Of a stretch of DNA of 64,000 nucleotides, positions 35,834 through 37,684 are shown in pieces; positions within the stretch are counted from its first letter, which is position 1, and every line of letters starts with the position of its first letter. The notes below the pieces were generated by a model. It saw nothing but the letters and a program-made list of their open reading frames with translations. It was not told where the DNA came from and searched no databases. The stretch lies in IMG/VR virus record IMGVR_UViG_3300028653_000010; one strand, written 5' to 3'. The translations under genes were made by a program, and so were the position numbers. Source of the stretch: a virus.

Positions 35834-37684
35834 TCAGCTATTCTTGGTGAACCCAGCCCCAACAGGGGTCTGGAAGAAGGTTGAAATCAAGATCTCAGGT
35901 TGAATGGAACACTGCTTTAGAGCGTCGAAAGCGCTATCAAAGTTCGGAGCTGCCTCCGTAATCTGGTAGTCTAGGTCCGTTCTAAGAGCCATAAGTTCCA
36001 CATTTAATCGGGCTTGTTTCTCAAAGCCTCGGATCTTGTCGTACTGAGTCTTGGTGACCCCGGCTAAGCTTGAAGCGTAGACCCCATCGATCGATCCGTG
36101 CGTTGTTAGAAGGGACGCCAGGATCTTACGAGGTACTCTTGGGACCCCGGGCAGATTGTCCGATGTGTCACCTGAGAGTGCTCTGAGGTGAACCATCAAC
36201 CGGGGCGGGACCCCATACTCTGACACAACTCTATCGGGGTCGTAAAGGGTCTCAGGTCGACTTCCTTGCTTTGGTACTAAAAGTAAGTCAGTGTATGTAA
36301 CCAACTGTAGGAAGTCACGGTCTGTAGAGATGATTATGTTGTGTTTACCTTTTAGCTTGTTCTTCAGTAAACAAGCGATAATATCGTCTGTTTCCTCGTC
36401 TGGATTATGGACTTGTGAGATGCCAAACATTGGAAGCATAGACTGAAGTCGTGACATCTCATCGTGTGTACCCTGACTATGCTCTGGCCTGCCTGCCTTG
36501 TAGTCTGGATACATGTCAACCCTACGCTGCTTAGAGCCATCCCATACAACATACATATTAGCTCTCTCAAAACGCTTCTTGAGTGCAGCTAAGCTACGCA
36601 AGAACCCAAATACTAGTGCAGTTGATCTGCCCTCACTATCGGTTAGCTGATCAGGGATGTTCCTTAGAGCATTGACAACCCTATAAGCTAGATTATGCCC
36701 GTCGAACACGATGTTGTTAGCCATATCTGGGTTCCAATCTGGTAGTGACCTCTCAAGTTGGTCACAATCACTGTGAATCTGTGAGTATCTAGCTATGAAG
36801 CTGTCGAGTAGGTCTAGTGCAGCTGAAGAGTTGGCTAGTTGTGAGACCTCTGGCAATTGAATCAGAGGTAAGTAGAAGAAAAACCCTGACCTTGATATGA
36901 ATGAGTTCATTTGCTGAACTTGATGAAACTTTTTCAGCAGAGGCTCGCTATCGGATCCCGTGAACATCTCAGGTGCCACTGGGTCTACTAGTAACTTCCT
37001 GGCTCTTCTAAAAGTATCAAGCCACGAGGTGATTCTTAGGTACCTGTCATACTTAGCTTGTAAGGGTTTTTCGGAACTAACCAAATACTTATTCGGAGCC
37101 TTGGCACGATCAATCCACTGCTTAATCCTGAACAACTTAGTTAGGAACGGGGAGTTGTACTGCTGGTCTTCGGTATTAGAGACATACTTCAAAAAGCTCC
37201 GAGGTAGTGTGATCAGCGCCTGCTTCGACCTGAGCTTAACGAATACTTGAACGGAGTTATTCTCAGGGATGTTCTCAATTACCTTGCCAACAATCCCGCT
37301 GTAGGCCCCACTCATGACCAAGACTTCGTCGCCTACCTCAATCCCTTGTTCAGTCTCAATGTGAAGCTGAAGGCGCATCTGTTCGATGGAGCTATCAGGC
37401 ACCGCCGATATCCTACGAATCCGATGATCATACACTGTCAGGATTGAGGTAATATACTTGGAACCCTCCAACTTGAAGTATACGGGGTCAGGTTGTGTAC
37501 GTCTAACGAAGATGTAGTTCTCAATTAACTTGTAAACTGACCTAGAATGCCCGCGTGTGATGGTTGAGGCTGGTACAAATACATCCTTCAAGCTCTTGAT
37601 AGATTTTCCAACAGCTTTTCTGAGGACCTCTGGGTCCTCATCCTCACCTTGAGGGCTTAACTCTAGGACAACCCACTCAGGCAT
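35834..37684 (-). CDS. NusG-like (NGN+KOW) domain fused to a PolI-type 5'-3' exonuclease/flap endonuclease
   Basis: N-terminus W.VL...VFVP...LIENYIFV and KOW EVGDEVLVMSGAYSGIVGKV. C-terminus DGHNLAYR, VVWDG, YKAGR, ETDD, STDRDFLQ, GDTSDNLPGV. Confidence 0.8.
   Translation of the reverse strand: MPEWVVLELSPQGEDEDPEVLRKAVGKSIKSLKDVFVPASTITRGHSRSVYKLIENYIFVRRTQPDPVYFKLEGSKYITSILTVYDHRIRRISAVPDSSIEQMRLQLHIETEQGIEVGDEVLVMSGAYSGIVGKVIENIPENNSVQVFVKLRSKQALITLPRSFLKYVSNTEDQQYNSPFLTKLFRIKQWIDRAKAPNKYLVSSEKPLQAKYDRYLRITSWLDTFRRARKLLVDPVAPEMFTGSDSEPLLKKFHQVQQMNSFISRSGFFFYLPLIQLPEVSQLANSSAALDLLDSFIARYSQIHSDCDQLERSLPDWNPDMANNIVFDGHNLAYRVVNALRNIPDQLTDSEGRSTALVFGFLRSLAALKKRFERANMYVVWDGSKQRRVDMYPDYKAGRPEHSQGTHDEMSRLQSMLPMFGISQVHNPDEETDDIIACLLKNKLKGKHNIIISTDRDFLQLVTYTDLLLVPKQGSRPETLYDPDRVVSEYGVPPRLMVHLRALSGDTSDNLPGVPRVPRKILASLLTTHGSIDGVYASSLAGVTKTQYDKIRGFEKQARLNVELMALRTDLDYQITEAAPNFDSAFDALKQCSIQPEILISTFFQTPVGAGFTKNS

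Follow-up and report, generated by a model that had tools for sequence, protein, structure and literature searches.

We describe here a gene of an uncultured phage that encodes a NusG-family transcription factor module and a flap endonuclease (FEN) in one polypeptide. The gene (35834..37684, minus strand, as are all genes and domains of this DNA given below) lies in a 64,000-nucleotide stretch of IMG/VR virus record IMGVR_UViG_3300028653_000010, which was analysed as a whole and is called the window hereafter; the source genome is about 440 kb. It is a single open reading frame (ORF) of 616 codons plus stop, running from 37684 to 35834 with zero internal stops, and its product consists of an NGN and a KOW domain, a helical linker and a DNA polymerase I (Pol I)-type 5' nuclease. 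A first-pass annotation of this DNA had described such an uninterrupted frame, a layout of NGN+KOW, helical linker and complete nuclease, and a position between dnaX and a sigma-4-like gene; the frame was found as described, the layout proved correct by Pfam, profile comparison and structure modelling, and the position was borne out by Pfam matches of both neighbours. The fusion is real: 10 contigs from several independent assemblies (longest contig, 443 kb) encode the identical protein, which rules out an overlooked stop codon or a faulty assembly. Both domains are well known, and the combination of NusG and FEN is undescribed in the literature that we searched.

The interpretation towards which we lean, by no means firmly, is that of an RNA polymerase (RNAP)-tethered nuclease with a second, free isoform. 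The gene would make one bifunctional protein, in which NGN and KOW are tied by a four-helix spacer of ~135 residues to a FEN-type 5' flap/exonuclease. The full-length form would sit on elongating host RNAP via NGN, and the nuclease would thereby be carried to transcribed phage DNA, where it would cut 5' flaps or RNA-DNA hybrids at places where transcription meets replication or recombination. In most members of the family, a FEN-only product from an internal ATG, GTG, or TTG would remove the primers of Okazaki fragments in the usual way, probably on the phage sliding clamp.

To our knowledge, no transcription factor other than NusG/Spt5 is conserved in all life, and all NusG/Spt5 proteins that we know of sit on elongating RNAP through NGN. 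In elongation complexes, members of the family contact the beta' clamp helices as well as the gate loop/protrusion of beta, and the known bacterial NusG paralogues recruit the ribosome, Rho, or antitermination factors non-covalently. The phage protein, if our interpretation is true, would be the first enzyme hard-wired to the elongation complex through NGN. A large lineage of 300-530-kb phages shares the fusion, which hints at an undescribed physical link between phage transcription and DNA replication; it could also provide a direct handle on how both processes are coordinated in very large phage genomes (e.g., with regard to conflicts, R-loops, and the switch to late genes). Adjacent, fused, and re-split genes form a natural series that, together with the likely expression of two isoforms, offers ready-made experimental controls.

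Domains of the fused protein

The NGN domain occupies residues 1-111 (37352..37684). Residues 4-104 matched the Pfam NusG/NGN model (PF02357) with 18 bits over profile positions 3-93 of 93, and a profile built from 65 N-terminal halves (A2) matched T. maritima NusG (2lq8) with an E-value of 8e-8, spanning both NGN and KOW. In the alignment, the conserved residues L53, Y57, and F59 fell on the NusG strand KLFPGYVFV, and this strand motif is the NusG-family feature that bears, indirectly, on the predicted contact with RNAP. The KOW domain (residues 112-168; 37181..37351) scored above the cut-off of its Pfam model (PF00467; residues 117-148, 25.3 bits vs 22.3).

AlphaFold2 models were built from family alignments and reached predicted local distance difference test (pLDDT) values of 80.7 for the full-length protein and 82.5 for the N-terminal half, with 80-92 for NGN (residues 1-111) and the KOW barrel (residues 117-168), and >90 for FEN. 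The model of the N-terminal half superposed on the NGN domain of RfaH (8pen_P) with Z 9.8 and a root-mean-square deviation (rmsd) of 3.1 for 97 of 101 residues (VIA-align), and Foldseek retrieved NusG, RfaH, and Spt5 at E-values of 4e-9 to 1e-6 over ~180 columns. The KOW model matched the KOW domain of NusG (2xhc_A) with Z 11.1 and rmsd 1.2 over 56 residues, and its fold also resembles those of ribosomal L24, NdhS, and Tudor domains (Z 7-9). Judging from the profile match to 2lq8 and the predicted fold similarity to RfaH NGN and NusG KOW, the N-terminal module is a divergent but bona fide NusG-family NGN+KOW, and the N-terminus does model as the first-pass annotation had assumed. By analogy with its family, this NGN is predicted to bind RNAP.

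The nuclease half is a complete FEN/Pol I-type 5' nuclease spanning residues 321-605, in which both Pfam domains scored above their cut-offs: the N-terminal PIN-like nuclease domain (residues 325-491; 36212..36712; PF02739, 5_3_exonuc_N, E 6e-31) and the H3TH/SAM-fold DNA-binding domain (residues 492-577; 35954..36211; PF01367, 5_3_exonuc, E 1e-15). With the full-length model, Foldseek retrieved FenA of M. smegmatis (6c33; E 3e-18, TM by target 0.77) as well as ExoIX, Taq, and T5 FEN. D328, D382, E431, D433, D434, D455, D457, D506, and D509, the last two of which sit in GDTSDNLPGV, align with all nine active-site acids of Taq, which form two metal-binding clusters and which we take to be, in order, D18, D67, E117, D119, D120, D142, D144, D188, and D191. 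The arch motif Y395-K396-A-x-R399 aligns with YKAGR of Taq, and helices 386-391 and 404-420 were modelled with pLDDT >89. The nuclease looks active, and flap endonuclease or 5' exonuclease activity is predicted, because every active-site acid and the YKAxR motif are present and vary little or not at all across 60 homologues, with each acid either invariant or conserved to at least 90%. The protein ends in a tail (residues 578-616; 35837..35953) with a conserved IQPxxILxTFF...GFxK motif, in which F603 is at least 90% conserved.

The linker between both halves (residues 169-320; 36725..37180) evolves fast and was modelled as four long helices (residues 179-199, 206-233, 249-274, and 281-313; pLDDT 55-95). 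No Pfam match was found in it, and a feature search of the ESM Atlas with the linker gave no usable match; the fold-search lists of the N-terminal half were filled by NGN and KOW matches, so that the linker helices were barely probed there. Judging from its sequence, the linker behaves like a spacer. Among 60 fused homologues, the mean pairwise identity was 49% in NGN, 64% in KOW, the most conserved part of the protein, 22% in the linker, and 54% in FEN. NGN and KOW are thus conserved like FEN, whereas the linker is not, which indicates that the NusG module is under its own purifying selection and argues for a conserved partner.

The linker also weakly resembles the coiled-coil region of an SbcC/Rad50-like protein of the same phage (45587..46933), with a profile E-value of 2e-8 in the locus set and 3e-6 per genome, and a pairwise E-value of 0.001. 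This similarity may reflect coiled-coil composition, shared origin, or a duplicated segment.

Fusion, fission, and a candidate internal start

The fused protein had 614 matches among 5.8 billion proteins, and the best 120 of these 614 are almost all full length (~600-680 residues, 37-87% identity, on contigs of up to 512 kb); 31 non-identical fused loci were found in IMG/VR. A search of 1.84 billion representatives, clustered at 50% identity, with the profile of the N-terminal half yielded 412 proteins at E<=0.001. The best 150 of these 412 comprise 54 proteins with NGN-KOW and FEN in one chain, 13 with NGN-KOW and linker only, and 83 with NGN-KOW only, the last being mostly 165-210 residues long. 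A few representatives (P0207, P0217, P0249, P0268, and P0274) have NGN-KOW at the C-terminus of 280-540-residue proteins, or C-terminal extensions of 100-230 residues without FEN, and may be other fusions or have mis-called starts. No match to the fused gene was found in GenBank phages by blastn; the tblastn matches there were confined to the nuclease half (27-34% identity), and thus no fused homologue was found among GenBank phages. Likewise, our literature search found no paper on a NusG-nuclease fusion or on a phage NusG of this kind, and the words nuclease, fusion, and fused are all absent from a 2021 review of NusG.

A sister clade of 21 loci has two genes instead, as do L041 and L047: a short NGN-KOW gene that lacks the linker and, directly downstream of it, a separate FEN gene. 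The fused forms were recovered as one clade on the FEN tree (Shimodaira-Hasegawa-like approximate likelihood ratio test, SH-aLRT, 99), at the base of which L042, a fused form with an unrelated linker, branches off; L045, which is also fused, was placed separately and has a long branch. Nested within the fused clade is another clade (SH-aLRT 98) in which the gene is split, with a frame change near the junction relative to the fused genes, and in which the linker remains with the NusG half. These split forms encode 287 and 295 residues with an overlap of GTGGTTGA and a GGAG Shine-Dalgarno (SD) sequence (L003), ~337-380 and 309 residues with an overlap of 44 nucleotides (L006-8), or 298 residues followed by FEN, with an A7 run at the junction (L009). 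A complex prediction of the naturally split halves (NGN-KOW-linker alignment with FEN alignment) gave a score of 0.00, which weighs neither way on binding.

The A7 run of L009 (GAAAAAAATG, L009:3640-3700), behind which the FEN frame is +1, is the only slippery-looking one among the split relatives; a homopolymer error, or transcriptional or translational slippage, could restore a fused product there.

The simplest history would thus begin with two adjacent genes, followed by fusion with gain of a helical segment of ~150 residues, and by one secondary fission; the count of these events is provisional because the tree came from a quick search and was rooted with FEN-only outgroups. The close homologues are fused and not consistently two genes, which agrees with the fusion put forward in the first-pass annotation, although two adjacent genes are the rule in the sister clade and a nested subclade is re-split. 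The adjacency of the two genes in the same gene block, and the fused forms L042 and L045 outside the core clade, argue for a functional link between NGN-KOW and FEN.

The first residue of FEN is Met321, and its in-frame ATG (36722..36724) is a candidate start of a FEN-only isoform, judging from residue and codon conservation and an SD-like motif. This residue is Met in 92 of 117 homologues and Val in 11, and most of the 14 exceptions have Met, Val, or Leu there or at a directly neighbouring position; Ile, which does occur at other conserved Met columns, is absent from this one. The codon in 29 non-identical loci is ATG in 20, GTG in four, and TTG in one (i.e., a start codon in 25 of 29), and Val at this site is always encoded by GTG (p ~0.02), which accounts for only 28% of Val codons in these genes. 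The predicted anti-SD pairing 3-18 nucleotides upstream averaged -4.8 kcal/mol at the site and -4.1 kcal/mol at proxy real starts. The mean elsewhere in frame was -2.7 kcal/mol, which differs from that of the site with a Mann-Whitney p of 1e-5 (without correction for phylogeny), and the four loci without a start codon at the site have the four weakest values. Because of the conserved ATG/GTG/TTG and the SD-like motif at the first FEN codon, most members of the family probably also make free FEN. The first-pass annotation had suggested that an internal Met may yield a separate nuclease, and this gained comparative support across the family, although the signal in the window itself is weak. Its functional proposals, namely coupling to replication, an R-loop or torpedo-like action, and a link of late transcription to nicks, are regarded here as mere possibilities.

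The strongest rival of the tethered nuclease is a neutral or co-expression fusion, in which the NusG-like part would serve the long co-directional operons as an antiterminator or processivity factor, FEN would simply remove replication primers, and two neighbouring genes would have merged into one frame with no physical coupling needed. Two genes suffice in the sister clade and in the nested re-split subclade, the conserved internal start points to a continuing need for free FEN, and both the fast evolution of the linker and the lack of predicted fixed packing between the domains are as expected for such a fusion. It accounts less well for the ~150-residue new helical segment, which came along where simple loss of a stop codon would have sufficed, for the persistence of the fusion down to ~37% identity and in at least 54 clusters, for the further fused forms outside the core clade (L042 and L045), and for the linker having been kept by the NusG half after the re-split. 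We regard it as rather unlikely, though far from negligible.

Genome context and the weighing of explanations

The stop of the upstream neighbour, a DnaX-like clamp-loader gene (37677..39113; PF13177, E 4e-26), overlaps the start of the fused gene by 8 nucleotides, and a gene for a sigma70 region-4 protein (35186..35827; PF04545, E 4e-12; phrog_351, sigma factor) follows downstream. This sigma-4 gene lies immediately downstream of FEN in all related loci, and a block of genes is common to all relatives: Toprim, phage metallopeptidase, DnaX, [NGN-KOW][FEN], sigma-4, and then genes of ~300, 88, and 499 codons. Five complete relatives are available (407-529 kb, four with terminal repeats). Each encodes exactly one FEN domain, which is the counterpart of the fused gene, one NGN-KOW, and, elsewhere in the genome, one family-A DNA polymerase without a 5' nuclease, and none of the five has Pol III alpha or a Pfam RNase H. 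FEN is therefore most likely the replicative primer-removal enzyme, as judged from gene content. None of the five has a Pfam match to RNAP beta or beta' either, and their sole match to sigma region 2 is sub-threshold; the T7-type RNAP model (PF00940) gave no match, which carries little weight as control genomes were unmatched too. Phage transcription thus most likely uses the host RNAP, because the relatives have no recognisable beta or beta' subunit.

Several points weigh against a nuclease tethered to RNAP. The Pfam score of NGN is below its cut-off of 22.2 bits, and the binding of RNAP by this NGN is a prediction from the family to which it belongs. The full-length model has a predicted template-modelling score (pTM) of 0.50, and thus predicts no fixed geometry between the domains. 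Nor is the covalent link obligatory, because the sister clade has two genes and one nested subclade is re-split. Very divergent phage RNA polymerases could evade the Pfam models. As for the free isoform, the SD statistics are not phylogenetically independent, and the site in the window is weak (TGGAA, -3.3 kcal/mol): the gene starts of the window have a median of -5.45 kcal/mol, and 37% of them are as weak or weaker. Because of this weak motif, the short FEN isoform is only plausible in this phage.

A broader proposal is that the full-length protein bridges the host RNAP (through NGN) and the phage replisome or clamp (through FEN and its tail); it would then make late transcription replication-dependent with the sigma-4 neighbour, or, as a nuclease that works during transcription, remove R-loops and flaps in front of forks in the co-directionally transcribed genome of ~440 kb. 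Either would represent a new class of NusG-delivered enzymatic effector. We consider this proposal quite unlikely as a whole.

Another rival explanation is a clamp-bridged late (morphogenesis) transcription like that of T4 gp55/gp33/gp45, in which NGN would sit on the beta' clamp helices of RNAP, FEN or its tail would sit on the clamp at nicks, and the sigma-4 protein would take part, so that late transcription would depend on replication. The gene indeed lies at the boundary between the replication module and the genes beyond the sigma-4 gene, and its neighbours in every relative are the clamp loader and the sigma-4 protein. A clamp-like protein of 420 residues is also encoded in the window (42080..43342; phrog_947, DNA polymerase processivity factor, E 6e-7 over the full profile length) and is probably a very divergent sliding clamp, but this phrog_947 match is the sole one, with no Pfam match and no PDB sequence match. 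The FEN proteins have conserved hydrophobic C-termini (IL-x-TFF in the fused clade; PDFLKDV, SWLSDI, or SLFD in the two-gene clade), which resemble the sliding-clamp-binding peptides of T4 and of beta-clamp partners, and from this resemblance we infer a possible clamp-binding role of the tail. The T4-type factors (gp55/gp33) carry a C-terminal clamp-binding peptide that activation requires; the FEN tails show a motif resemblance to such peptides, and the sigma-4 neighbour ends in a different conserved motif. Such a bridge is difficult to reconcile with NGN domains binding elongation complexes rather than activating initiation, and with the competition of NGN and sigma region 2 for the same site, and we think it very unlikely.

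With regard to the FEN C-termini themselves, the proteins of the two-gene clade (L044-L077, L041, and L047) have PDFLKDV, SWLSDI, DDWMSSI, or SLFD at the extreme C-terminus, and the fused clade has IQPxxILxTFF...GFxKTS instead.

Just as small a chance is given by us to a repurposed NGN-KOW that would target the nuclease to a partner other than RNAP (ribosome/S10, replisome, single-stranded nucleic acid, or Rho). No part of the protein is more conserved than KOW, KOW/Tudor-like barrels bind many partners, and the family is remote from cellular NusG, its profile having collected just the 412 matches described above. The NGN fold and the conserved GY-x-F-V strand motif have nevertheless been kept, and all NGN domains with a reported partner bind RNAP, with none known to have another partner (PMC7819879; 10.1101/324400). 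Finally, a sequencing or assembly artefact, in which a missed stop or frameshift would have merged two genes, has practically no probability and was ruled out by the 10 contigs with the identical protein and by the presence of the fusion in >100 distinct sequences.

Known systems and further features of the window

NusG/Spt5 and the paralogues RfaH, LoaP, UpxY, and ActX/TaA share with the fused protein the NGN plus one KOW barrel and the (F/P)GY-x-F-V motif. Like the paralogues, the phage protein is an extra copy encoded by a mobile element, and its best fold and profile matches are NusG, RfaH, and Spt5. It differs from them in ~450 extra C-terminal residues (the four-helix spacer and the active-looking nuclease), in its great divergence, and in being encoded within a replication module and not at the head of a target operon; no ops-like recruitment element is known for it, and no search was aimed at one. 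On the nuclease side, FenA (6c33), E. coli ExoIX, Taq Pol I, T5 D15, and T4 RNase H have the same PIN-like plus H3TH fold, metal-binding acids, and YKAxR motif, and the presence of a sole FEN in a phage lineage whose PolA has no 5' nuclease reminds us of T5 and T7. Unlike the stand-alone FENs and the Pol I domain, which are free or fused to a polymerase, this FEN carries an N-terminal transcription-factor module.

The eukaryotic torpedo complexes of Spt5 with Rat1/Xrn2, which precede termination (e.g., PDB 8qsz and 8k5p), likewise place a 5'-3' nuclease beside the KOW of NusG/Spt5 on an elongating polymerase. They differ from the fused protein in that the contact is non-covalent, nascent RNA is the substrate of the enzyme, an XRN exoribonuclease, and transcription is terminated as a result; for the fused protein, nothing points to engagement of an RNA 5' end. 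In T4, gp55, gp33, and gp45 connect small RNAP-binding proteins at the beta' clamp helices and the beta flap to the sliding clamp. Similarly, an NGN (by family, a binder of the beta' clamp helices) and a sigma-4 protein (by family, a binder of the beta flap) are encoded here beside a clamp loader, although neither gp55 nor gp33 is related in sequence to them, and NGN acts in elongation, not in initiation.

In the sigma-4 protein, region 4 lies near the N-terminus (residues 54-102), and the C-terminal motif FNIL(R/H)EV(K/S)LPQ(W/F)xxRG(G)D is extremely conserved in both fused and two-gene clades (L001-L077).

The window amounts to a one-strand module for replication and recombination, with genes for ribonucleotide reductase, the delta subunit, NAD ligase, RecD2, RecA, SbcCD, a PD-(D/E)XK nuclease, the clamp-like protein, Toprim, and DnaX. 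A tRNA scan of the window found none, and a scan for promoters and terminators between 30000 and 44000 found fewer sites than in shuffled sequences, i.e., no signal. All ORFs of at least 120 codons in the window (1..64000), other than those inside larger minus-strand ORFs, are on the minus strand, and the cumulative GC skew declines steadily across it. In three related loci, the dnaX frame has ~900 codons (L023:3263-5989, L033:3201-6008, and L036:3218-5956) in place of the usual ~480, and it is in two pieces in L024, which suggests an insertion in the clamp loader, possibly an intein or an extra domain.

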